This document shows, in pieces, positions 24,899 through 56,899 of a DNA stretch of 64,000 nucleotides. Every line of letters begins with the position of its first letter. Position 1 is the first letter of the stretch. The translations under genes were made by a program, and so were the position numbers. The notes under the pieces are model-generated. The model saw only the letters and a list, made by a program, of their open reading frames with translations. It was not told where the DNA came from and searched no databases. The stretch covers positions 9,222-73,221 of the forward strand of contig JAWADS010000001.1 of assembly GCA_038998625.1 (NCBI GenBank). Reading direction: 5' to 3'. Source of the DNA: Candidatus Aenigmatarchaeota archaeon (GTDB lineage: Archaea > Aenigmatarchaeota > Aenigmatarchaeia > CG10238-14 > SCSR01).

Positions 24899-25276
24899 AT
24901 GAATTGGGAGGAATTATATAAAAAATATTCAAAGCCAAAAAAGAAAAAAATATTTCCTATTTTATTAGTTATAGTCTTTTCGACTCTATTTTTTCTCTTC
25001 ATATTATATTATTTTTCTTTACCAGAATTTATAGAGCCACAGGCTGAAATTGTAAGTGATGTAATAACTCTACCTTCTATAAAGGGCGAGCATTGCACAA
25101 TATATATAACTGGTCCAAATAATATAATAAAATTATTTTCGGAATATGATTGTAGCGAATATCAAATTTTTAGGTTTGAGATTTTAGATCTTTTTTCGGA
25201 TATTAAAGGTAGGTATAAGTTAGTTGTTGTTTCTGATTCAGGAAATAATTTGACGAAAAACTTTTTGGTGGTATAA
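24899..25276 (+). CDS. single-pass membrane protein, hypothetical
   Basis: 125 aa, N-terminal TM; stop overlaps start of giant gene (TAATG). Confidence 0.35.
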   Translation: MNWEELYKKYSKPKKKKIFPILLVIVFSTLFFLFILYYFSLPEFIEPQAEIVSDVITLPSIKGEHCTIYITGPNNIIKLFSEYDCSEYQIFRFEILDLFSDIKGRYKLVVVSDSGNNLTKNFLVV

Positions 25277-28200
25277 TGAAAAAAAGTATTTCAATTTTTT
25301 TAATTATAACTTATTTGCTCTCCATTATTAAAGTACCAATAGCTGTCACGCAGAGTACAGATAATTTTAGTGATGAAGATGTAAAGAAAATTTTAAGCAA
25401 AGGAGCAATATTTTGTGTAAAAGATGCTGTAGAGGTATCTAAAGATGTTTATAAAGTTGTATGTTTAATCTCTCCTAAAAATTTAACCAAAGTAAAATTT
25501 GAATTTGGGCCCGCATTTAGTTTTGGAAGAATGGAGTTTCTAGGTTATGAAGCCACAGATAAGATTGAGTTTGTGAGCAAATTTAAGAACTTTCTGGAGT
25601 TTGAAGTATTTCCCACTTCTAGAGTAGGATTTACTATAAATATAAAAGCAAATTTCAGGCCCAATTTCAAAGTAACTTCCACTCTACCTGCTTATTACTT
25701 TAATGATTTGAAAGAACTTTTTGATGCTATAGATTCTATTCATTCTATAGAAGCATTGGAAGTTTTAAAATCTAGTTGTGAGGTGGCGTTTGAGAAAGAA
25801 TGTGTTTTAGAACATTTTATTACTAATTCCAGTGCTCCGGCGAAATATATAAATTTAACTAGTGATGAGTTAAGCAAATTGGTAGCTTTAGGAGAATTTT
25901 CCAAAAAGATAGATGGTGCTGATGTAAAATTTGTGCTTAGTTTTGAAAATAATGAAGTAAAAGTTTATGATAAGGAAAATTATGTCGGAAACTTTTATTT
26001 GCATTCAGCTTTTGTTCCCGTTAAAGCGCCAAGCCTCCCTGAAACGAATTTAACATCTTTAGAAACGATTAAAGAAGTTACCTTATTTTTCTTGAATTAT
26101 GAATTGAAAATAAATGGAACTGACGTTTATATAACAGAGTACGAAGATTTAGATTTGTTGGCAGATGAAATATTTTCTGGCAAACTATTTCCAATTACAG
26201 GTTCTTTTATTGCCACAGAAATTTTTAATAAGATAAAAGAAGAGTTGCTAATTAAACAAAGTAAACAAAGAGATTTAGCAGAAAAAATACATACTTTTGA
26301 AAAATTCGCTACCGACTATAATGTAAATATATTTAAACGCATAATGATTGCTATCTTAAACGAGATAAATAATAATATAGAATTAGGTGAAATAGAGGAA
26401 GCTAGTCAGCGTATAACAAAATTGAAAAATGCAGTTGGGGAATTTTCAAAAAATGCAGTTGGGGAATTTAAAGATTATTTCCAAGATTTAGAGAAAGAAC
26501 TAACTAAAATAGAAGAAACCATTAAAACAGATTTTAAAAGTGCACTAGATTATGTAAGAAATTTAAAAGAAAAAATAACTTCTGAAACAATTAATGATTT
26601 CCTTCAAGTTGCAAAGTCGAAAGGAGTAGATATATCTAAAAAATTTACAGAGAAAGATGGTAGGAGAGCACCAAAAGTTGTAAATGTTGTAAGAACAAGC
26701 GTAACAGAATTACCACCATCTATAAAAGATAAAATCACGTCACCTATATTCGTTCCTAAAGGACAACCTGATTTAAAAGATATGAAAAAATTCTTTAAAG
26801 AGCTCGCTTTTAGGGATTATATTGACCAAGGCATTTATTTGTTCTGGGGTGATTACTCAAAGGTCCCTAGAGAATATTTACAAGTATATGTTTCTGTAGC
26901 TAAGGAAGATTATCAAAAGGCTTTGAAGTTTATACAATTTGAACTGAAAAGAAATAATATACCTCATTTAATGGTTAAGCCAGAGCTTTATGATGAAGTT
27001 AAGAATGGAAAATATGTGATAATTCTTTTACGTAATAATGACGATTTGAGAGTGGTAAGGACCATAGAAGATATCTTATATAATCTAAATATTAGACCTG
27101 GGCCCAAGCCTTTAATAAAGGGAATATCTTTAGATAAGTATATAATAAGTAAATATACTTTTGGCGCGTGGGAAAACAATTTTGGTGGAGAAAAAAAGAT
27201 TAAACCAATTCTTGCATATAATTCTGATACTGGGAAGTTGGAAACTATATCTCCAGAGACACCTTTGCTTCCAAAAGTTGTTACACAATCTGATTTATTG
27301 AATAAAAATTTCAAAGAGGGAGATGTGATTGCTTATTTTGCTCCTCATGGTGATGCTAGAATATATTTAATGGGGGAAATAAAATCCTTTGACGCAAGTA
27401 AAAAAAGAGTTCTCGTTTCAAATATTTTTGGTTCAGAATTTGAGATCCCAATAAATTGGGTATCAAATACACCAAACATTCATATCTTTTACGATAAACA
27501 TAAGCAAATCGAAATACGACAATTATCAGAAAAACTATGGAGGAATTCTCTATCAAAAAATCTCGCCTCTAAATTAAGCATATCGGATGTTGAGCTTTTG
27601 TTAAAGAATGGATTTTACCTTAAAGGTGATTTAGTTTATTACCTTTCTGAAGATAAAAGAATTTATAGCTTACCTCTCGATGATTTTCTAAAATCTCCCT
27701 CAATTGAAGATATTTTTTGGGATACATATAAGAATCATTTAATAGTTATTCCTAATTCCCTAAGCGAAAAATATCCTGCGAGACTTAAAGGTCTTGCTAT
27801 AACTAAATCTGTTTATAATGATATAACTTCTTGGATTAATAACATCCAGCCCGGTCAACAGAAAGGTTTAGTTGCTTTCCTTACAATGAATGAAAAAGGA
27901 GTGATAGACAAAGTTTGGTTAAAGGGCATAACTGATCCTGTTTATGAAGGAGTGACTCTTGGTTCTATCCAAGATTTCCATAAGTATATATTAGCAAAAT
28001 ATTTGAACCCATTAGAGTTTGGTCTACATGGAAAACTATTGGCATATTTCGTACCAGAAGGCTTCTTACCAGATTTAACCTTAGGGCAACTTTTAGCGTC
28101 TTTTGAGTATGATAAAAAGGATGTTTTTCATTTATTGCTTATTTCAAGAGAATTAGGTGAAGTAAAATTTAATTTTTACAGAATTGATTTTTCCAAGTTA

Positions 28201-31200
28201 TCGAAGGATGATATTCAATGGCTAAAATACATAGCGAATGAATATCGAAGGAGAACTGGAACAGAATTAGCTTTATCTACAATAAGTGAGCAATTGGAGG
28301 CGCACCCAGATTTAAAAGCATATTTTGAAAAACATTCTAATTTCCACAAGATTGGTACACAAAATATTGAAATGGTTCATAAAATTGATGAAACAAAAGC
28401 TTTCAAAATTGCACTACTTAATGGTGAACAAGCCATAGGTGGTTTGGAGAGATCTCTAAAAAATCTTAAAAAAATGATATTTTTTGGCAATGAGTTAGAT
28501 CTTCAAACTGGTTTTACATATAGATATTCTTTTAGATACGCTTCTAATATATATACAGAAATACGCAGAAGAGTGGATCTATGGGACAGTATTTTAGATA
28601 ATCTGTTAAAAAGCGGTGAGATATCCCAAGAAATTTACAATTCTTATAAAAACATAATAAATAAAGTTTACGAAATAGGATTAACCATTGAGCCAGGGAA
28701 GCCTATAAAGGATACTTTGAAAAAAATTGATGAAGCTTTAAAGTCAATAAAGAATGAAAAGAAGACATTATTTAAATTATTATCCTATCAATCTAAAAAA
28801 TTATCCATAGAGCCCAACACTGGGTTTAGTGAGGTCGCTAAAAATATAGAACCTACTAAATTACCTGAAAATATTGAAGAGTCCATAGAGAATTCTGCAA
28901 TCGCTAAAGTAGCAAAAGAAGAAGCTGAAAAGGGCATAAAAGAAATTCCAAGTCAAGAAGAAATTCTACAAAAAATTGAAAGGGAACAAGAAAGATTAAT
29001 ATCAGAAACACCAAGAACGAGTTTTGAGCCTACTGCTCAAAAAATTGGTAAAGTAGATGAATTAACTTCCAAGATTGATAATTATATCCTATCTAGTAAA
29101 ATAGCAGATTCGTTAACAACAGAAAATATTAGAAAATTGTTGGATGGAAAAGTAGTTTTTGTTGATGATAATTATTTGCTTGTATTATCTCCAAAAGGTC
29201 AATTAACTTTAGTTCATTTTCCTGATAAAACGTTTTTATATTCTTCCGATGGAACTAAGGCTGTTATAAAAATGAGATCCACACCCTACCTAACACCAGA
29301 CGATTTAGATGAATTAATAAAAAAGAACATACCTATGGTTTATCCGAAATATAAGCTTCCCGATGAAGTTCTTGTAATAGGAATTGTGGATGGAAGGCCT
29401 GTTGAAAAACTTTATGATTTGAGAGAATTCAAAAAGTTTGTTGAAAATGAGGGAACGCCTTCAGCAAAAATATCAAGAGAATTTAGAGAAAAATTTAACT
29501 CTTATTTAGATTCTATTCGTGGAACAGAAGAAGAAGTTGTAAAAGCGTTAGATAAATTTTTCAATATGAAAGGGTTGCCGGAAAAATCTGATTTAACTAT
29601 TGCGGCAGGCCCGGCAGTAAAAGTAAAACCCAAATTACTCAACATCGATGAAGATTATCTTCAATTCAGGTTAGGAATTTCTATTATTAATGCCGAGACG
29701 GCACAAAACGTACTTTCACCAATATATGCTATAAGGGACGATTTAGAAACTAATTTTAAGTTAATGGGAATAAAGACCCCTGATGACATAGCAGATGGTA
29801 TGACAATAAAAATAAAAGGAAGAGATTATGTTTTACGTAAATTACCTAATAACCAAATTTCTATCGAGCTTGCAGTTTTTCGTGAGGGTGATCCATCCCT
29901 TTTAGAATTCCAAAAAGTGGGCACATTTTATCTTGTTGATGGTGAAGTTAAAGATGCGTATTCATGGAATAGAGCGGTGGCTTCTACGTTCAAAGATGTA
30001 AAGGCTTCTCAAGACCTCAGGGATGGCAGATATATTCTGAATACAAATAATTACAAAATTGAAAAAATGGATTATGGCTCAGTAGTGTTTGAAAATAATA
30101 GGCCAGCTATTTTTAGTATTGTAGGGGCAAATAGGGAAACCATGTATGTACCTATTTCTATTGATAGATCGCAATTTTTGCAAAAAACTTTCTCAGAAAT
30201 CGGAACTGCTGGGATAGGAAAAGAATATGCATTCGGTTCAGACAATGGAGATGTCTATAGATTTACCAAAAGACATTGGGAACCCGATTTAAAATGGGAA
30301 ATGGAAGTTAATGGAAAACCGGCTGGATTTTTGACGGATGAAGGATTAAAAACAAAAATAAGAGAATTAGTGGGTTCTGGTTATAATCCATTAATTCCCG
30401 CTTATAGGTTTAGTCCAATCGATGTTGAAAAAGAAATAAGAGGACTTTCAGAGCCTTATTATTCTAAAACTTTCTCAAATGGTCAAGAAGCTTTCAGACT
30501 TAGAAATGTTGATGGTCGCATTATATTAGAGACAGGGGGGATGCAACCAAGAACAATAACTGTTGAAGAGGCTCGGTCACTTCTAGCAACATCTAAAAGA
30601 GTAGAGATATTAAGCACAGATGGTGCTAATTTAATATCCCAAACATCTTTTTGGAAACAAATATCAAGGCCAGTAGGAATATTAACAAAAGATTTTTATC
30701 CTTTAGTTGGTCCGGCTGATTTTATTGCTTTTGGCGCTATAGCAGCATTTTCTCTTTATAGTATAACTGAAAATAGGGAAGAAATGAATAGGAGAATTGT
30801 TTATAATACGGTTGAAAATTTTGCGGTCGAGCCTCTATTAGTTACAACAATTGCAAGGGGTTTAGGTCTGAGAGCAGCTTTCAGTGGCGCAAGGGCTGCT
30901 GTTGCGGGCGTAGGTGGCGCAATTACTCTAGGAATTTTAACGGCTGTAGTTGCTGCAGAAATGGTTGCAGAAGATACAATAGAAGAATATCTAAGAGGTA
31001 ATAGGTTAAATGATATGGGTATACCTATACCTAATGATTTGGGGTCAGCTTTAGGTAGAGTTTTTGGAGGATATTGGGACTTTTTAATAAATTCAAATAG
31101 TGAGCAAACTCTAGAGAGTAGCAGTATGTTTAATACAGTAGCTACATCCATTTATAAAGACTTATCTAATCAAGCATTAAAAAACTTTCAAAATTATATA

Positions 31201-32682
31201 GATTCAAAGATTGGTAATAAAAATAATGAAATCCTTAAGGGAATACAAAAAATCATAGAACTTCACGGCACAGGTCCTAAAGGAAACTATGTAGACATAA
31301 TCGATGGTACGGAATATGTGTGGTTTATGGAAGAAGGTAAGTTTGAAGTTAAGTATACAAATGAAGCCGGGAATAAAGTTACAATAACCTATAGAATAAC
31401 TGATGCGGGTATTGTACCTACTGAATATAAGGAAGAAGGTAAAGTGGGCTTTGATGCTCTCGGTTGCTTAACACGTCCCTTAGGTTTAGGTGGGAATTGT
31501 TGTTTAAATCTAGCTGGGTGTGATGTAGGAATAATAGAAGAAAGGAAGATTAGTTTCTCTGATTTACAACATGAGGCTTTCAATAGGGCCGATGATTTAA
31601 TTGTTGATAGAGTAGAAGGAGATTTAAATAGATTGACTGCCTTTACAAAACCCGATGAAATTCTTAATGAAGCTCAAAGAATAGCCGATAAACTAAATTC
31701 AGATCCAAATTTTGTTCAATATTATGGTAGGCCCATCACAGCTTCAGAAGTTATTGAACTTGCAAAACCAAAAATTAAAAAAGATGCTGAAACAGAATGC
31801 CTACAAGCATTTGCTGGAGATATTTATGGTTTCTCTTCACAAGAAGCTTATGATAAATGCGTTGAAGATACATATAAGAAAAAAGTTCAGGCATTCGAAG
31901 AAAGTCATAATCAGATAGGATTTAAAGATTGTTCACAAGCTGGTGGAACATGTATGCCACCTATACATGCTGTGGAACGTGGTTGCGAGAGGTTTTACTT
32001 TTATTGCGATAGTTCACGAATGTGTTGCAAATCCCAAGTAAGTACACCGCAAGAGCCTAAAGGTCAAGAGACAATCAATACTTACGAGGCATGTGAAGGC
32101 TTACGTAACCAGGGACTAGATTCAGGTTGCTATCTTGGCAAATGCGGTCAAGGTTACATTTCAGCAGGCTATTGCGATAAGGCAAATGACGTTTATTGTT
32201 GTGTTAAGGCAGAAGGGACTGGCCAAATCAACACTTACGAGGCATGTGAAGGCTTACGTAATCAAGGACTAGATTCAGGTTGCCATCTTGAAAAATGTAT
32301 TCAAGGTTACACTTCAGTAGGTTATTGTGATCAGGCAAATAGCGTTCATTGTTGTGTTAAAACAGAAGATTGTACTTCAAAGGAATTGAAAAAAGAATGT
32401 ATTAGTGATAAAAAACTAAGGATTACTGGTTATGTTTGTCCTTCTGGCTATGGTAGTGATATAAATTGTCTGAAATGTGTGGAGGGTTCTGCGGAGATAG
32501 AATGTAAAATGGGATGCAGCACCAAAACTAACAACTGTGTTGAAGAAAATTTTGTACCCATAGGAAATTATATTTGCCCAAAAGACGCTTGCAGTAAAAG
32601 CGGTGAATTTTGGACTTGTGATTTGGGTAGATGTGAGGCTCTACAAGGCAGCAGTGCACCTACTGCACCTACAAGTGAATAA
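25276..32682 (+). CDS. giant secreted/surface protein (2468 aa) with C-proximal hydrophobic segments and C-terminal Cys-rich modules
   Basis: Uninterrupted 7.4-kb ORF; signal peptide MKKSISIFLIITYLLSIIKVPIAV; hydrophobic stretches at residues about 1805-1900; C-terminal 400 aa with more than 40 Cys including a duplicated 51-aa 6-Cys module. Confidence 0.8.
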   Translation: MKKSISIFLIITYLLSIIKVPIAVTQSTDNFSDEDVKKILSKGAIFCVKDAVEVSKDVYKVVCLISPKNLTKVKFEFGPAFSFGRMEFLGYEATDKIEFVSKFKNFLEFEVFPTSRVGFTINIKANFRPNFKVTSTLPAYYFNDLKELFDAIDSIHSIEALEVLKSSCEVAFEKECVLEHFITNSSAPAKYINLTSDELSKLVALGEFSKKIDGADVKFVLSFENNEVKVYDKENYVGNFYLHSAFVPVKAPSLPETNLTSLETIKEVTLFFLNYELKINGTDVYITEYEDLDLLADEIFSGKLFPITGSFIATEIFNKIKEELLIKQSKQRDLAEKIHTFEKFATDYNVNIFKRIMIAILNEINNNIELGEIEEASQRITKLKNAVGEFSKNAVGEFKDYFQDLEKELTKIEETIKTDFKSALDYVRNLKEKITSETINDFLQVAKSKGVDISKKFTEKDGRRAPKVVNVVRTSVTELPPSIKDKITSPIFVPKGQPDLKDMKKFFKELAFRDYIDQGIYLFWGDYSKVPREYLQVYVSVAKEDYQKALKFIQFELKRNNIPHLMVKPELYDEVKNGKYVIILLRNNDDLRVVRTIEDILYNLNIRPGPKPLIKGISLDKYIISKYTFGAWENNFGGEKKIKPILAYNSDTGKLETISPETPLLPKVVTQSDLLNKNFKEGDVIAYFAPHGDARIYLMGEIKSFDASKKRVLVSNIFGSEFEIPINWVSNTPNIHIFYDKHKQIEIRQLSEKLWRNSLSKNLASKLSISDVELLLKNGFYLKGDLVYYLSEDKRIYSLPLDDFLKSPSIEDIFWDTYKNHLIVIPNSLSEKYPARLKGLAITKSVYNDITSWINNIQPGQQKGLVAFLTMNEKGVIDKVWLKGITDPVYEGVTLGSIQDFHKYILAKYLNPLEFGLHGKLLAYFVPEGFLPDLTLGQLLASFEYDKKDVFHLLLISRELGEVKFNFYRIDFSKLSKDDIQWLKYIANEYRRRTGTELALSTISEQLEAHPDLKAYFEKHSNFHKIGTQNIEMVHKIDETKAFKIALLNGEQAIGGLERSLKNLKKMIFFGNELDLQTGFTYRYSFRYASNIYTEIRRRVDLWDSILDNLLKSGEISQEIYNSYKNIINKVYEIGLTIEPGKPIKDTLKKIDEALKSIKNEKKTLFKLLSYQSKKLSIEPNTGFSEVAKNIEPTKLPENIEESIENSAIAKVAKEEAEKGIKEIPSQEEILQKIEREQERLISETPRTSFEPTAQKIGKVDELTSKIDNYILSSKIADSLTTENIRKLLDGKVVFVDDNYLLVLSPKGQLTLVHFPDKTFLYSSDGTKAVIKMRSTPYLTPDDLDELIKKNIPMVYPKYKLPDEVLVIGIVDGRPVEKLYDLREFKKFVENEGTPSAKISREFREKFNSYLDSIRGTEEEVVKALDKFFNMKGLPEKSDLTIAAGPAVKVKPKLLNIDEDYLQFRLGISIINAETAQNVLSPIYAIRDDLETNFKLMGIKTPDDIADGMTIKIKGRDYVLRKLPNNQISIELAVFREGDPSLLEFQKVGTFYLVDGEVKDAYSWNRAVASTFKDVKASQDLRDGRYILNTNNYKIEKMDYGSVVFENNRPAIFSIVGANRETMYVPISIDRSQFLQKTFSEIGTAGIGKEYAFGSDNGDVYRFTKRHWEPDLKWEMEVNGKPAGFLTDEGLKTKIRELVGSGYNPLIPAYRFSPIDVEKEIRGLSEPYYSKTFSNGQEAFRLRNVDGRIILETGGMQPRTITVEEARSLLATSKRVEILSTDGANLISQTSFWKQISRPVGILTKDFYPLVGPADFIAFGAIAAFSLYSITENREEMNRRIVYNTVENFAVEPLLVTTIARGLGLRAAFSGARAAVAGVGGAITLGILTAVVAAEMVAEDTIEEYLRGNRLNDMGIPIPNDLGSALGRVFGGYWDFLINSNSEQTLESSSMFNTVATSIYKDLSNQALKNFQNYIDSKIGNKNNEILKGIQKIIELHGTGPKGNYVDIIDGTEYVWFMEEGKFEVKYTNEAGNKVTITYRITDAGIVPTEYKEEGKVGFDALGCLTRPLGLGGNCCLNLAGCDVGIIEERKISFSDLQHEAFNRADDLIVDRVEGDLNRLTAFTKPDEILNEAQRIADKLNSDPNFVQYYGRPITASEVIELAKPKIKKDAETECLQAFAGDIYGFSSQEAYDKCVEDTYKKKVQAFEESHNQIGFKDCSQAGGTCMPPIHAVERGCERFYFYCDSSRMCCKSQVSTPQEPKGQETINTYEACEGLRNQGLDSGCYLGKCGQGYISAGYCDKANDVYCCVKAEGTGQINTYEACEGLRNQGLDSGCHLEKCIQGYTSVGYCDQANSVHCCVKTEDCTSKELKKECISDKKLRITGYVCPSGYGSDINCLKCVEGSAEIECKMGCSTKTNNCVEENFVPIGNYICPKDACSKSGEFWTCDLGRCEALQGSSAPTAPTSE
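26425..26472 (+). repeat. 24-nt tandem duplication (encodes KNAVGEFS twice) inside giant gene
   Basis: aaaaatgcagttggggaattt occurs twice with 24-nt period. Confidence 0.7.
32074..32379 (+). repeat. 153-nt tandem duplication (about 90 percent identity) encoding a 51-aa 6-Cys module
   Basis: atcaaTacttacgaggcatgtgaaggcttacgtaaCcagggactagattcaggttgcTatcttg... repeated starting 32074 and 32227. Confidence 0.85.
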
Positions 32683-38014: not shown

Positions 38015-38134
38015 TGGGGTCGGAGGGATTCGAACCCTCGTTAACCGGTTGCTTCTTACTTCTCATAGCTCCATATACTGGAGCCGGTTTTCTAATCATG
38101 GAAGATGTCTTAGACCTAGCTAGACCACGACCCC
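38015..38134 (-). tRNA. tRNA-Trp(CCA) with two predicted introns (about 17 nt after position 26; about 28 nt in anticodon loop)
   Basis: Minus-strand read: GGGGTCG-TG-GTCT-AGCTAGGTCTA-AGAC-A-[tcttccatgattagaaa]-ACCGG-CTCCA[gtatatggagctatgagaagtaagaagc]AA-CCGGT-TAAC-GAGGG-TTCGAAT-CCCTC-CGACCCC-A; perfect acceptor and T arms. Confidence 0.6.
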
Positions 38135-38235
38135 AGCCACCAGTGGGATTCGAACCCACAACCCCCTGATAACTTTCTGTCATTTTTCCAGTTATCAGGT
38201 ACAAGTCAGGTGCTCTACCGTTGAGCTATGGTGGC
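38135..38235 (-). tRNA. tRNA-Thr(UGU) with about 29-nt canonical-position (37/38) intron
   Basis: GCCACCA-TA-GCTC-AACGGTA-GAGC-A-CCTGA-CTTGTA[cctgataactggaaaaatgacagaaagtt]A-TCAGG-GGGTT-GTGGG-TTCGAAT-CCCAC-TGGTGGC-T; directly abuts tRNA-Trp. Confidence 0.7.
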
Positions 38236-42623: not shown

Positions 42624-43310
42624 ATGCGTTATGTAGCTTTAGTCCCAGCTTTTAATGAAGAAGAGAATATAGAGAAAGTGATTAAACTTCTAAAAAATTT
42701 GTTCTATATGGATGTTGTTGTAGTGGATGATGGCTCTAAGGATAGAACAGCCGAAATAGCAAGGAAAAGTGGTGCAATTGTTTTAAAACATAAAATAAAT
42801 AAAGGTAAGGGCGAAGCCTTGAGGACTGGTTTAAATTATATTTTAAAGAAACATAATGCCAATTATGTTGTTTTAATTGATGCTGATATGCAATATCATC
42901 CTAAAGAATCTGTAAAGTTGTTGAAATTATTGGAAAAAAACGATGCAGACATTGTTATGGGATATCGAAATTGGAAGAGCATACCTTACTTTAGACATAG
43001 GCTGGGCAATTTCTTCTGGCGATCACTTTTTAATTTATTATTTGGGACAAAGTTTAAAGATACAAATTGCGGCTTTATGGCTATGAATAGGATAGCTATA
43101 AAAAAGATTAAAAACAATATTCATGGGGGCTATATCATAGAAAATTCTATTTTAGCATCTGCTCTAAAAAATAAATTAAAAGTAATGCAAGTTCCAGTAA
43201 GTGTGAAGTATAAAAAGAAAAGTGGTATAAGAAGAGGAATTAGGATATTTCTAGGGGTTTCAACTTTTATATTGTGGGAAGGTTTAAAATATAGATTAGG
43301 CATTAATTGA
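42624..43310 (+). CDS. family 2 glycosyltransferase (dolichol-phosphate sugar transferase-like)
   Basis: VPAFNEEENI, VVVDDGSKDRT, LIDADMQY (DxD) motifs. Confidence 0.7.
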   Translation: MRYVALVPAFNEEENIEKVIKLLKNLFYMDVVVVDDGSKDRTAEIARKSGAIVLKHKINKGKGEALRTGLNYILKKHNANYVVLIDADMQYHPKESVKLLKLLEKNDADIVMGYRNWKSIPYFRHRLGNFFWRSLFNLLFGTKFKDTNCGFMAMNRIAIKKIKNNIHGGYIIENSILASALKNKLKVMQVPVSVKYKKKSGIRRGIRIFLGVSTFILWEGLKYRLGIN

Positions 43311-43377
43311 ACAAAAACTAATTTTTTAAATGGATTGATTAATTTAATAAATTTCAAAGTAGATTTAGAATAATTTA

Positions 43378-43481
43378 GGGACGGTAGCTCAACCCGGGAG
43401 AGCAACTAAAGCTCTAAACCGCCTGAAGAGCGGTGCGTTGTGGGTTCAAAAGGCTCTTGCCTGAAATTCCCACCCGTCCCA
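43378..43481 (+). tRNA. tRNA-Phe(GAA) with two predicted non-canonical introns (13 nt after position 26; 17 nt in T-loop)
   Basis: GGGACGG-TA-GCTC-AACCCGGGA-GAGC-A-[actaaagctctaa]-ACCGC-CTGAAGA-GCGGT-GCGTT-GTGGG-TTCAAA[aggctcttgcctgaaat]T-CCCAC-CCGTCCC-A. Confidence 0.6.
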
Positions 43482-43500
43482 TATAATTAGAGAGATAAAC

Positions 43501-44067
43501 ATGGTAGAAAAAGTTTGGGAAGGAGAATTAATTGAAAATAGAGTAATAATTTGGGATAGTCAAGCTGTTAATCTTTATGATGATTCTGGTTATGGTAAGC
43601 CCTTACCAGAGGACAAACCTGATAGAGTCGAATTAGATTTGGTGGAAGCCGCTTACTTATTAGAAAAAGGTAAGTTAAAAGTTTTTTTAAAGGAGGATAA
43701 GAAGAAAAGATATCTTAACTTTAATGAATTAATGGAAATAGGAGCAAAAAATATAAATCAGTTTCACCCTCAATTTATAGTTTTTCGCGACTTAAGAGAA
43801 AGAGGATATCTTGTTAAAACTGGTTATAAATTCGGTGCGCATTTTCGTGTTTATGATAGAGGAGTTAAATTGAAAAGAGGTCCAAAAGCTCCTCATGAAC
43901 ATACTAAATGGGTAGTGCATGCAGTACCAGAAGAGGCTGCCTTTTCATTACCTGAAATGTCTAGAGCAGTTAGATTAGCACACAATATAAGAGCGACATT
44001 TTTATGGGCAGTTGTGGATAAAGAGTCAGATGTCACTTATTATCAAATAACTCGTGTCACACCTTAA
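43501..44067 (+). CDS. endA: tRNA-splicing endonuclease EndA
   Basis: LVEAAYLLEKGKLKV; catalytic region GYKFGAHFRVYDRG...HEHTKWVVHAV...RLAHNIRATFLWAVVD closely parallels archaeal EndA (Tyr/His/Lys triad). Confidence 0.8.
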   Translation: MVEKVWEGELIENRVIIWDSQAVNLYDDSGYGKPLPEDKPDRVELDLVEAAYLLEKGKLKVFLKEDKKKRYLNFNELMEIGAKNINQFHPQFIVFRDLRERGYLVKTGYKFGAHFRVYDRGVKLKRGPKAPHEHTKWVVHAVPEEAAFSLPEMSRAVRLAHNIRATFLWAVVDKESDVTYYQITRVTP

Positions 44068-45498: not shown

Positions 45499-45581
45499 TG
45501 GGCCTGTCCGGAATCGAACCGGAGTTTCGACCGTGTGAGGGTTTAACGCTTCGTCGCGTCCTACCACTAGACTACAGGCCC
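45499..45581 (-). tRNA. tRNA-Val(CAC) with predicted 12-nt intron inside the anticodon stem
   Basis: GGGCCTG-TA-GTCT-AGTGGTA-GGAC-G-CGAC[gaagcgttaaac]C-CTCACAC-GGTCG-AAAC-TCCGG-TTCGATT-CCGGA-CAGGCCC-A; removing 12 nt gives a perfect 5-bp anticodon stem. Confidence 0.65.
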
Positions 45582-49280: not shown

Positions 49281-49566
49281 TTAATAAAGAGAGCGGGAGT
49301 GCGCCCTTGGTTGTTACATATCTATAAACTATTTAACCCAAATCCCCTTCTCAGCTCAGTGACTTTCAAGCACCACACTAACTAGCTTATGGCTGCTTGG
49401 TTCCCCACCTGACCAGGTTCGCTAGTTAGTTGGCCCTGAAAGGCTGAGCCTCTTAGTTAGAGATTTGGAATAGCCTATAGATATGTACCGCCCAAAGGCT
49501 TCGACTCGGCCATCAGGACCATTTGCCGATGTAGGCGAGGCCCAGCCGCCCAGGTCTAACTCCCGC
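49281..49566 (-). ncRNA. signal recognition particle RNA (7S/SRP RNA)
   Basis: Minus strand contains CCTGGTCAGGTGGGGAACCAAGCAGCCATAAGC, matching the universally conserved SRP helix-8 motif (compare E. coli 4.5S CCAGGUCAGGUCCGGAAGGAAGCAGCC); 5' GCGGGAG pairs with 3' CTCCCGC; about 286 nt and GC-rich relative to surroundings. Confidence 0.7.
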
Positions 49567-52212: not shown

Positions 52213-52320
52213 ATGGCAAGACAATACGAAGATGAGGAAGAGTCGGAAGAGTCTGAAGAATCTGAGGAGGAAGAGTGGGAAGAAGAAACTTCTGAAAGTT
52301 TCGACGAAGATTGGGAATAA
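52213..52320 (+). CDS. putative 35-aa highly acidic micro-protein
   Basis: ATG preceded by aGGTGAacgataaa; encodes MARQYEDEEESEESEESEEEEWEEETSESFDEDWE; not in ORF track (under 60 aa). Confidence 0.25.
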   Translation: MARQYEDEEESEESEESEEEEWEEETSESFDEDWE

Positions 52321-52515
52321 ATTTTTTGTATTTTTTTCTTTTTTAATTTTTCGGTAATTTTCTTTTTTGCGATAGATTATTTTTTACACAACAATAATTC
52401 TTGATGGCTTTTTTAGTACTTATATATGTAGTCATTATTTGATGGCGACATTTATAAGGAATACCATAATGGTTTTAAAACCTTACATCTAACTTTATTT
52501 TAGGTGATATAGAAA

Positions 52516-52803
52516 ATGGCAGTATTTGGAGGTTTAGTTGACCTCGGTGTTGCCATTCTATTGGTTGCAGCTTTAGCAGAATACTTTAAGTTTAGAGGTA
52601 AGGCAGACAAAGGATTTTCTTGGTTGGCTGTATCAGGAGTTTTCTTCGTCTTTGCAGGAACCTTCGGAACAGCAACCACATTAGGTTCATATATAGGATC
52701 TGCTGCTTGGGGAGGACTAGGGCAACTCTTTGAGGTCTTGGGTTGGTTGTTCGCACTAGTAGGAACAATATTTGTTGCCTATCAAACCCTAGTGGAGAGA
52801 TAG
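52516..52803 (+). CDS. small membrane protein (3 TM), hypothetical
   Basis: 95 aa; Gly/Ala-rich TM helices. Confidence 0.35.
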   Translation: MAVFGGLVDLGVAILLVAALAEYFKFRGKADKGFSWLAVSGVFFVFAGTFGTATTLGSYIGSAAWGGLGQLFEVLGWLFALVGTIFVAYQTLVER

Positions 52804-55122: not shown

Positions 55123-55266
55123 TGCAGGGGGTGGGATTTGAACCCACGAAGGCACTAAGCCACGAGGTTTCTTATCTTCATCCTATCAGAGCTCAAGTAA
55201 ACCTCTATCTTGAGCTTCGCGCAACTTTAAAATCTCGCGCCATTGACCAGGCTAGGCGACCCCTGC
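55123..55266 (-). tRNA. tRNA-Leu(CAA) with about 58 nt of intron sequence (probably two introns flanking the anticodon loop)
   Basis: GCAGGGG-TC-GCC-TAGCCTGGTCAAT-GGC (Leu-type D arm)...CTCAAGA anticodon loop...TGGCTTAGTGCCTTC long variable arm-GTGGG-TTCAAAT-CCCAC-CCCCTGC-A; 144 nt against about 86 expected. Confidence 0.55.
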
Positions 55267-56008: not shown

Positions 56009-56094
56009 TGCGCCAGCCGGGATTTGAACCCGGGCCCTAAGCTTGGCAAGCTTCCACAACTTTTTATGTCCTAACCAGGCTAGACTACTGGCGC
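56009..56094 (-). tRNA. tRNA-Gly(GCC) with predicted 12-nt intron in the 5' half of the anticodon stem
   Basis: GCGCCAG-TA-GTCT-AGCCTGGTTA-GGAC-A-TA[aaaagttgtgga]AGC-TTGCCAA-GCTTA-GGGC-CCGGG-TTCAAAT-CCCGG-CTGGCGC-A. Confidence 0.6.
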
Positions 56095-56105
56095 TCACCA
56101 AATTA

Positions 56106-56399
56106 TCAACCAAATATATTACCAAATCCAATATTAGCTTTATTCTCTTCTTCTTTAATTTTTCTTATTACTTTATTCTCTTCTTCTTTATTTAGAGGTT
56201 TAGATAAATCTTTAGTCGAATCTATAGCTCTTTTACACTGCTCTTCTGTCCCAGAAATATAACAGTAATGACCTTCTTTGTTTAGCAGAGTTTTAGCATC
56301 TTTAAAAATTATGCTTGCCCTTGATACAATATCATCTTTAAGTAAGATTTCCCTAACTTTTTGCAGATTTTTATTATCAATTAAAAGTACTATTTCCAT
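56106..56399 (-). CDS. hypothetical protein
   Basis: 97-aa ORF. Confidence 0.3.
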   Translation of the reverse strand: MEIVLLIDNKNLQKVREILLKDDIVSRASIIFKDAKTLLNKEGHYCYISGTEEQCKRAIDSTKDLSKPLNKEEENKVIRKIKEEENKANIGFGNIFG

Positions 56400-56813
56400 A
56401 AAATTTTCTCCTTAATTACTATTTATCACTATTTTGTTATAAAAAGCTTTAAGTTTTCGTAAGATTTAAAAGGCTTATTTTTCAAATAAGAATTTAAGAC
56501 CAAACATGTTAACAAAAATAATAGGGTTGTATTTAATATTTGATGGGATAGTAAGCTGGCTGATATATAAAAGGCAGAAAATACTAATATTGGGCAAAAA
56601 GATTGTATCACTTTATCCCTTTAGCAAACATCATAAGATAAGAAACAAGGGAATAGTTAAAACAGTAAAACAAGATTTAAACGAGCACCTACCTAGATTC
56701 TTTAGAGTAATACTAGGCTTTACTTTGGTAGTTACACCTCTACCAATATAATATCCTGAATTCTTGTTTCCAGTGAGAGGTTTGCCTTTTTCTTCTATTT
56801 TTTAATTTTCAAA

Positions 56814-56899
56814 AGCCCCGAGTGGGATTTGAACCCACGACCCAGTGCTTACGAGGCACTTAAGCTTAAATTTGCTCTACCAGACTGAGCTATCGGGGC
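56814..56899 (-). tRNA. tRNA-Thr(CGU) with predicted 12-nt intron between D arm and anticodon stem
   Basis: GCCCCGA-TA-GCTC-AGTCTGGTA-GAGC-A-[aatttaagctta]-AGTGC-CTCGTAA-GCACT-GGGTC-GTGGG-TTCAAAT-CCCAC-TCGGGGC-T. Confidence 0.6.

Follow-up and report, generated by a model that had tools for sequence, protein, structure and literature searches.

Twelve-nucleotide inserts in tRNA genes of an Aenigmatarchaeota archaeon as probable introns of a relaxed bulge-helix-bulge type

Introduction

The stretch of DNA considered here (hereafter the window) comprises 64,000 nucleotides (nt) of contig JAWADS010000001.1 from a Candidatus Aenigmatarchaeota archaeon, and it carries seven detectable tRNA genes, every one of which is interrupted. 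They hold ten introns in total, seven of them at non-canonical positions, that is, outside the canonical site between nucleotides 37 and 38 (37/38). The window is archaeal by its signal recognition particle RNA (Rfam Archaea_SRP, 49293–49566), and its GC content is 32%. This article concerns two of the seven genes, encoding tRNA-Gly(GCC) and tRNA-Thr(CGU), each of which contains an insert of 12 nt, together with the gene for the splicing endonuclease EndA that lies 12 kb away. The inserts are very probably genuine archaeal tRNA introns, removed by proteins and belonging to the relaxed hBH/BHL type.

The interrupted tRNA-Gly(GCC) and tRNA-Thr(CGU) genes

The two genes and their inserts are located as follows, the position of each putative intron being that chosen by the splice-motif geometry described in the next section.

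56009–56094, minus strand: tRNA-Gly(GCC) gene, 86 nt, Rfam tRNA score 47.3 bits, cloverleaf after removal of 12 nt
56052–56063, minus strand: putative tRNA-Gly(GCC) intron at 29/30, 12 nt, AAAGUUGUGGAA
56814–56899, minus strand: tRNA-Thr(CGU) gene, 86 nt, Rfam tRNA score 47.9 bits, cloverleaf after removal of 12 nt
56860–56871, minus strand: putative tRNA-Thr(CGU) intron at 27/28, 12 nt, AUUUAAGCUUAA

The Gly gene has the acceptor stem GCGCCAG/CUGGCGC with discriminator A73, the D arm GUCU-AGCCUGGUUA-GGAC, and the anticodon loop UUGCCAA; CCA is not encoded, and a T-run follows directly 3′ of the gene. Its Thr counterpart has the acceptor stem GCCCCGA/UCGGGGC, discriminator U73, and the anticodon loop CUCGUAA. 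In the Rfam matches the anticodon-arm region spans 23 nt (Gly) and 27 nt (Thr) against the expected 11 and 15, an excess of 12 nt in each.

All deletions possible between the D and T stems were scanned with explicit scoring of stems and loops, a procedure adopted because ARAGORN, when run on all deletion products, accepted almost any of them and offered no discrimination. Loss of exactly 12 nt is the sole deletion that restores a cloverleaf in tRNA-Gly(GCC), tRNA-Thr(CGU), and a third gene of the window, tRNA-Val(CAC). What is restored includes a 7-nt loop with U33 and R37 (a purine) on a 5-bp Watson-Crick anticodon stem, together with position 26 and a variable loop of 4–5 nt. The spliced anticodon regions read A26 UAAGC UUGCCAA GCUUA GGGC in Gly and A26 AGUGC CUCGUAA GCACU GGGUC in Thr. 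The original prediction, made by a model from the sequence letters, had described two 86-nt genes that fold into a standard cloverleaf only once 12 nt are excised; the Rfam boundaries and the deletion scan confirm both statements, and the anticodons are also correct.

As 2 nt are repeated at the borders of each insert, three junctions per gene are indistinguishable by sequence: 27/28, 28/29, and 29/30 in Gly, and 25/26, 26/27, and 27/28 in Thr. Placement of the Gly insert within the 5′ strand of the anticodon stem, and of the Thr insert between position 26 and the stem, as first proposed, is among these allowed alternatives. The Gly insert breaks the anticodon stem, whose five base pairs are obtained solely by removing it.

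Geometry of the splice motif

The archaeal splicing endonuclease acts on a 4-bp helix flanked by two 3-nt bulges and cuts each strand after the second bulge nucleotide (PMC4090602, PMC3239211). Some enzymes accept relaxed forms of this bulge-helix-bulge (BHB) motif, termed hBH, HBh′, or BHL, in which one closed bulge is lacking (PMC4090602, PMC3239211). When BHB geometry was imposed on each of the sequence-equivalent junctions, one junction per gene was found to fit (H, central helix; h, outer helix; ^, splice site):

tRNA-Thr(CGU), 27/28, AUUUAAGCUUAA: H GAGC/GCUU, 4 of 4 pairs; h GGUA/UGCC, 4 bp; bulges AA^A and AA^G
tRNA-Gly(GCC), 29/30, AAAGUUGUGGAA: H ACAU/GUGG, 3 of 4 pairs; h UAGG/CUUG, 4 bp; bulges AA^A and AA^G
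tRNA-Val(CAC), 28/29, ACGAAGCGUUAA: H GACG/CGUU, 4 of 4 pairs; h 1 bp; bulges CG^A and AA^A

In all three genes intron nucleotides 7–10 pair with the 3′ strand of the D stem to give H, and h arises from pairing of D-loop nucleotides with the 5′ side of the anticodon stem. An 8-nt loop closed by H contains the 5′ splice site, and a 3-nt bulge, AA^N, carries the 3′ site. A strict BHB with a closed 5′ bulge was rejected for the 12-nt introns, which are assigned to the relaxed hBH class because their helix h′ has at most 1 bp; lying at 27/28 and 29/30, the focal introns also depart in position from a strict hBHBh′ motif of 3-4-3 form at 37/38.

Shuffled inserts rarely attained the observed BHB score, 654 of 20,000 doing so for Gly (3.3%), 52 of 20,000 for Thr (0.26%), and 84 of 20,000 for Val (0.42%). 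When the window's seven non-canonical introns are pooled, their score is 69, compared with 32.1 ± 5.6 after shuffling, and none of 5,000 shuffles reached it. The H strand of each intron matches exon sequence of its own gene (GAGC/GCUU, GACG/CGUU, AGAG/CUCU, CGCG/CGCG, and ACAU/GUGG). Left unconstrained, the minimum free energy (MFE) fold of the Thr precursor includes exactly H, the 3-nt bulge, and h (z = −4.05), and the H hairpin also forms in the MFE folds of the Gly, Val, and Phe precursors. The original prediction had been made to depend on a BHB-like structure being formable around some junction, and such a motif is present at the junctions and in an unconstrained MFE fold.

Orthologous genes in related Aenigmarchaeota

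Homologues of the radical-SAM protein encoded next to tRNA-Thr are named as Candidatus Aenigmatarchaeota proteins, and all 27 loci with close relatives of the window EndA come from Aenigmatarchaeota or archaeal metagenome-assembled genomes (MAGs). In relatives the genes Leu(CAA)-Gly(GCC)-Thr(CGU)-radical SAM keep this order, on which ground the tRNA genes are treated as orthologues. Their states in the window and in the fetched loci (L numbers) are as follows.

tRNA-Thr(CGU), L004: intronless, 73 nt
tRNA-Thr(CGU), L003: 10-nt intron at 37/38
tRNA-Thr(CGU), L001, L037, L038, and L039: intron of 15–22 nt at 30/31; second, canonical intron in L037 and L039
tRNA-Thr(CGU), window: 12-nt intron at 27/28, a site seen in the window only
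tRNA-Gly(GCC), intron at 29/30: 12 nt in the window, 11 nt in L003 and L037, 16 nt in L038
tRNA-Gly(GCC), canonical intron: L003, L037, L004, and L001
tRNA-Gly(GCC), L011: no intron

Expansion of the D arm or of the variable region, which had been named as a finding that would tell against introns, is excluded by the Thr(CGU) series, in which one orthologue has 73 nt and others are interrupted at 30/31 or 37/38. Within the 30/31 series of Thr the exon and intron strands of H change in a compensatory manner (CACC/GGUG, CGCC/GGCG, CGAC/GUCG), and in the 29/30 series of Gly the helix is represented by ACAU/GUGG, ACAC/GUGG, and AUAC/GUAG. The Gly exons are almost identical in the window, L003, and L037; the loop part of the intron varies and its helix-forming 3′ part is conserved. 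The window Thr(CGU) intron begins with AUUUAA and in this resembles the introns of L037 and L039, and it is compatible with an ancestral intron that would have slid by 3 nt. Elsewhere, tRNA-Val orthologues have no intron in L006, L018, and L004 and a canonical 12-nt intron in L023, T-loop introns recur in tRNA-Phe of L015 and L025, and the first Leu intron has a homologue in L037.

For the wider survey, tRNA genes of the loci were decomposed with a finder of our own that required R37, excluded A34, and ranked solutions by BHB score; it misses some genes and treats the variable arm of type II tRNAs as an intron. By this finder 40 of 64 detectable tRNA genes in non-redundant relatives are interrupted (about 63%), and 19 of the 46 introns scored are at most 13 nt long, many of them at 37/38. 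Judged from these sequences, the introns are labile, and gain, loss, or a shift of a few nucleotides appears to have occurred among close relatives. The comparative data exclude structural expansions and pseudogenes. The micro-intron proliferation that had been predicted is indeed general, affecting seven of seven window genes and most of the detectable genes in relatives, and is phylum-wide rather than specific to this genome.

The Gly(GCC) orthologues of L038 and L039 carry introns in the D arm, of 15 nt in the D loop (L038, 3284–3389, minus strand) and of about 18 nt at 21/22 (L039, 3448–3540, minus strand), which shows that still more insertion sites are in use in the phylum.

The splicing endonuclease

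A candidate processing enzyme is encoded within the window.

43501–44067, plus strand: EndA, 188 aa, single alpha unit, Pfam PF02778 and PF01974

This is the one open reading frame (ORF) of the window that matches M. jannaschii EndA (phmmer, E=1.4e-32; query verified against PDB 1a79), and its product also matches 1a79 (E=4.7e-30), Nanoarchaeum equitans NEQ205 (3iey_A, 2.1e-23), and the EndA of ARMAN-2. It aligns over its full length to the M. jannaschii protein, with an N-terminal and a catalytic C-terminal domain, and keeps an acidic L10-like loop (VVDKESDVTYY). No second EndA-like ORF was found by phmmer in the 64-kb window or in the fetched loci of relatives, the genome beyond 64 kb being unseen.

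Relative to M. jannaschii, the window EndA has a basic insertion of 6 aa between the catalytic Tyr and His (FRVYDRGVKLKRGPKAPHEH versus FRLYERGANIDKEH), and this loop aligns without gaps to that of NEQ205 (VKLKRGPKAPHEH in the window, VIPKKGKRSEREH in NEQ205). The basic loop before the catalytic His is near-invariant in Aenigmarchaeota EndAs (VK-L-KR-GPKAP-HEH). The insertion corresponds to residues 90–98 of the N. equitans and 240–247 of the ARMAN-2 protein (PMC3488258); it was named L3 by Kaneta et al., and single-unit (alpha4-type) DPANN EndAs that bear it are associated with increased tRNA gene disruption (PMC5829648). Mutation of the L3 lysines of the ARMAN-2 enzyme was without effect (PMC3488258), and the role ascribed to the loop is therefore correlative. 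An endonuclease of relaxed positional specificity had been predicted: an EndA with a Nanoarchaeum-type basic loop is encoded in the window, and for broad specificity the argument is one of correlation.

The active site itself is unusual. In an alignment of 28 Aenigmarchaeota orthologues (the window and L006–L032) with three outgroups, the catalytic Tyr and His are invariant among the Aenigmarchaeota enzymes, and the column of the catalytic Lys (K156 of M. jannaschii, in ‘VRK’) holds Ala in 25 of 28 and Ser in the other 3, within the context ‘RLAHNIRATF’; the Tyr-His-Lys triad is thus incomplete. Lys is retained in the three outgroups and in all solved EndAs, and substitution of any triad residue by Ala abolishes cleavage by the A. 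fulgidus and ARMAN-2 enzymes (PMC12397907). An exhaustive HMMER search returned 943 hits; among the best 150 representatives of these, 133 catalytic-type units have Tyr, His, and Lys, Ala or Ser at the Lys column is confined to clusters with a long ‘RGV[KN]..G[PQE]K’ loop, and a small separate group has Thr at this column and short loops. A lysine of the loop, or the Lys at His+2 (HEHTK), may stand in for the missing residue; another catalytic subunit encoded elsewhere in the genome is a possible alternative. A broader scheme, in which the active site would have been rebuilt throughout the phylum, with Ala or Ser for Lys and a substitute Lys in the loop or at His+2, and in which this flexible cation would permit hBH substrates and so allow introns of 10–13 nt to spread, is tentative and, on present evidence, rather doubtful.

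In P0122, a two-unit, alpha′2-like EndA relative of 360 aa with 42% identity, both units carry Ser at the Lys column, and the second unit has the same GQK-type loop. An active site lacking Lys therefore occurs in a fused architecture also.

Other tRNA genes of the window

The remaining five genes bring the number of interrupted tRNA genes to seven.

45499–45581, minus strand: tRNA-Val(CAC), 83 nt, with a 12-nt intron, ACGAAGCGUUAA, at 28/29 (45543–45554)
43378–43481, plus strand: tRNA-Phe(GAA), 104 nt, with a 13-nt intron at 26/27 (43405–43417) and a 17-nt T-loop intron at 59/60 (43451–43467)
38015–38134, minus strand: tRNA-Trp(CCA), 120 nt, with a 17-nt intron at 25/26–26/27 (38090–38106) and a 28-nt canonical intron (38050–38077)
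38135–38235, minus strand: tRNA-Thr(UGU), 101 nt, with a 29-nt canonical intron at 37/38 (38171–38199)
55123–55266, minus strand: tRNA-Leu(CAA), 144 nt, with an 18-nt intron at 30/31 (55216–55233) and a 40-nt canonical intron (55169–55208)

The companion pattern that had been noted in Val, Phe, and Trp is borne out by introns of 12, 13, and 17 nt at 28/29, 26/27, and 25/26–26/27, respectively, and extends to Leu with 18 nt at 30/31. In tRNA-Phe(GAA) all four H pairs form in both introns (AGAG/CUCU in the 13-nt intron), and the 17-nt T-loop intron has a strict hBHBh′ motif (h 5, H 4, h′ 3). tRNA-Leu(CAA) was dissected by hand because the finder mishandles type II tRNAs; its first intron has four of four H pairs (CGCG/CGCG), and its second has three of four and, after removal of the first, an outer helix h of 7 bp.

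Of the tRNA genes of the window Rfam detects six, each of them longer than a normal tRNA and lying on the minus strand. ARAGORN sees just the Gly and Thr(CGU) genes, both wrongly, calling the former Phe(aaa) and truncating the latter. tRNA-Phe(GAA) is missed by both programs (no Rfam match at E≤1 on 43200–43600); it was read by eye in a 190-nt gap, a reading prompted by the position of tRNA-Phe just upstream of EndA in relatives, and was then recovered by our finder. A relaxed scan of the window yielded no tRNA genes beyond the seven. Most ‘T-loop insert’ candidates of the relaxed finder, and a candidate at 52399–52639, were rejected by eye as AT-rich noise. A/T-rich, TATA-like sequences lie upstream of the tRNA genes of the window and T-runs downstream.

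The 3′ end of tRNA-Phe(GAA) lies 19 nt upstream of the EndA start codon, so that a substrate gene and the gene of its processing enzyme may be co-transcribed. The same arrangement, with Phe(GAA) immediately upstream of EndA on the same strand, is present in the window and in L006, L007, L009, L015, L018, L020, L022–L026, and L028–L032, and the number of introns in this Phe gene varies among loci from none to two. Thr(UGU) and Trp(CCA) are adjacent with zero spacer, the Thr discriminator U being followed directly by G1 of Trp; in the relatives L009, L013, and L022 the two genes are about 0.4–1.8 kb apart.

Long canonical introns were surveyed in the window (Leu intron 2, 55169–55208) and in L001, L004, L009, L013, L037, and L038. 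Nine of 15 such introns of at least 23 nt contain CUGA or UUGA, with a GAUGA-like string no more than 10 nt further on, and an AAGAA tail, a count reached in none of 2,000 shuffles for a pattern that was defined only after the data had been seen. The pattern, which is not present in the micro-introns, resembles box D′/C′ (K-loop) elements such as those of the C/D guide in haloarchaeal pre-tRNA-Trp.

Two protein-coding features may be recorded in addition, namely a 35-codon ORF (52214–52320, plus strand) that lies in the intergenic gap following a CoA-ligase gene and encodes a peptide of extreme acidity (MARQYEDEEESEESEESEEEEWEEETSESFDEDWE), and by far the largest ORF of the window, of 2468 aa (25276–32682, plus strand).

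Proposed splicing mechanism and alternative explanations

If the 12-nt inserts are introns, the substrate for cleavage would be a precursor fold other than the cloverleaf. The D-stem 3′ strand (about positions 22–27) would pair with intron nucleotides 7–10 to form the 4-bp helix H, and G18 G19 U A of the D loop would form h with the 5′ side of the anticodon stem. The last two intron nucleotides (AA) and the first nucleotide of the 3′ exon would then make up the 3-nt bulge holding the 3′ splice site, and the 5′ site would lie in the 8-nt loop closed by H, where a symmetric bulge would place it (NN^A). EndA would cut both sites, a ligase (RtcB in archaea) would join the exons, and the mature sequence could then refold to give the D arm and an anticodon stem of 5 bp.

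Several points weigh against this interpretation. The motif is relaxed, with an unclosed 5′ bulge (h′ of 0–1 bp); h is reduced to 1 bp in Val and to none in the 17-nt intron of Trp, and the H helix of Gly contains an A·G mismatch. The choice of junction depends on our own BHB scoring, applied once the folds had been seen. Single-unit (alpha4-type) EndAs are classically reported to need strict BHB motifs (PMC3239211, PMC3488258), and that of the window is without the canonical catalytic Lys, so its competence, like cleavage, ligation, and the order of folding, is something we infer from sequence. The anatomy of the introns, the comparative support, and the presence of an EndA gene are nonetheless matters of direct observation.

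Other explanations have been considered. The mature tRNA might keep the 12 nt as an expansion, peculiar to the lineage, that separates the D arm from the anticodon stem, and the unspliced genes do score above the Rfam threshold; this is highly improbable, given that in syntenic orthologues the insert is missing or inserts occur at other sites, that the Gly insert disrupts the very stem its removal completes, and that the inserts combine splice-motif geometry with covariation between exon and intron. Scarcely more credible is the view of the interrupted genes as assembly artefacts or as pseudogenes in decay, with functional copies elsewhere in the genome. The 64 kb in view are a part of the genome, and DPANN MAGs are often fragmentary; yet each of the seven interrupted genes has exons that make a flawless cloverleaf, the independent assemblies of the window, L003, and L037 agree in nearly identical Gly exons around a variable intron loop, and the upstream TATA-like sequences and downstream T-runs are in place.

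A further question, compatible with splicing, is that of origin, and here the micro-introns might be copies of one mobile micro-element moving between tRNA genes, as had been raised with the original prediction. Many tRNA species are affected at neighbouring sites, from 25/26 to 30/31; the first nucleotide is A in each of the seven non-canonical introns of the window, and the last two are AA in six of them; and an AUUU(U)AA start is common to Thr(CGU), Leu, and the 30/31 introns of Thr in relatives. For Thermoproteales, transposition of introns has been proposed (Fujishima 2010, as cited in PMC4090602). Beyond the bulge nucleotides and a gene-specific H strand, however, the loop segments differ (AAGUU, UUUAA, CGAAG, CUAAAG), and AU-rich starts are to be expected at the base composition of the window. 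The resemblance among the introns is limited to A1, the terminal AA, and the AU-rich starts, over lengths too short for statistics; 12 nt afford no statistical power. The 12-mers share what the structure demands and no common loop sequence, and the pattern among orthologues is more suggestive of vertical descent accompanied by loss and by sliding over 3 nt. A mobile origin is accordingly judged unlikely, and protein-spliced introns of relaxed type are the explanation we favour for the inserts themselves.

Implications

Non-canonical, relaxed-motif, multiple, and T-loop introns, their lability, and their association with loop-bearing endonucleases were established already (PMC5829648, PMC4090602). 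The focal introns belong to this known class and bring no new biology, and the interpretation first given to them is supported throughout; no description of tRNA introns in Aenigmarchaeota was found in the searchable literature. What stands out is the density of interruption and the minimal size of the introns, and an EndA without its canonical Lys might surprise specialists. One more DPANN phylum joins the lineages with massively interrupted tRNA genes, and the introns of the window are of the smallest size that a BHB-type motif allows. The failure of standard tools on this lineage (ARAGORN reading Gly as Phe, Rfam blind to tRNA-Phe) means that tRNA complements and completeness estimates of Aenigmarchaeota MAGs will be wrong unless intron-aware methods are used.

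The Thr(CGU) series, in which one orthologous gene is intronless or interrupted at 27/28, 30/31, or 37/38, is well suited to the study of intron gain, loss, and sliding. On the side of the enzyme, an essential protein is found without a residue that mutagenesis calls indispensable, in a host that would depend on EndA for apparently every tRNA in view. If a residue of the loop is the substitute, the architecture of the active site would be tied to the breadth of substrates accepted, an open question in the literature on co-evolution of EndA and tRNA.

Comparison with known systems

A close parallel is provided by Crenarchaeota, especially Thermoproteales, for which non-canonical tRNA introns with hBH or HBh′ motifs are described (Marck & Grosjean 2003; Sugahara et al. 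2008; PMC4090602, PMC4033280). Those lineages and the present one have in common short introns at sites other than 37/38 (25/26 and the T loop among them), genes with several introns, relaxed BHB motifs drawn from exon and intron in a fold other than the cloverleaf, a high proportion of interrupted genes, and rapid gain and loss. The present host differs in being a member of a DPANN phylum, in having an EndA of one alpha unit that lacks the N-terminal loop (CSL/L1) of Crenarchaeota, and in the clustering of its introns at the lower size limit (10–13 nt), the canonical site included.

Among DPANN archaea a close known counterpart is the intron of pre-tRNA-Cys of ARMAN-2 (Micrarchaeota), a 13-nt hBH (‘BHL’) intron at 59/60 that is cleaved in vitro by an epsilon2 EndA (PMC3239211). 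It resembles the focal introns in its host superphylum, its length (about 12–13 nt), its non-canonical site, and its combination of one true bulge with a loop bearing the other splice site, and the 59/60 position itself recurs in tRNA-Phe of the window. The focal introns differ in lying at 27/28 and 29/30, where they pair with the D-stem strand, and the 188-aa single-unit EndA of the window, with an L3-type loop only, is unlike the three-unit epsilon2 enzyme with its need for the lysine of the ASL (L2) loop. For the enzyme, close known counterparts are NEQ205 of Nanoarchaeum equitans and the DPANN EndAs with an L3 loop (PMC2761253, PMC3488258, PMC5829648). NEQ205 has the same basic, gap-free insertion between the catalytic Tyr and His, but lacks an N-terminal domain, needs a beta subunit, and retains the full Tyr/His/Lys triad, whereas the window EndA combines an N-terminal domain and an acidic L10-like loop with Ala at the Lys position.

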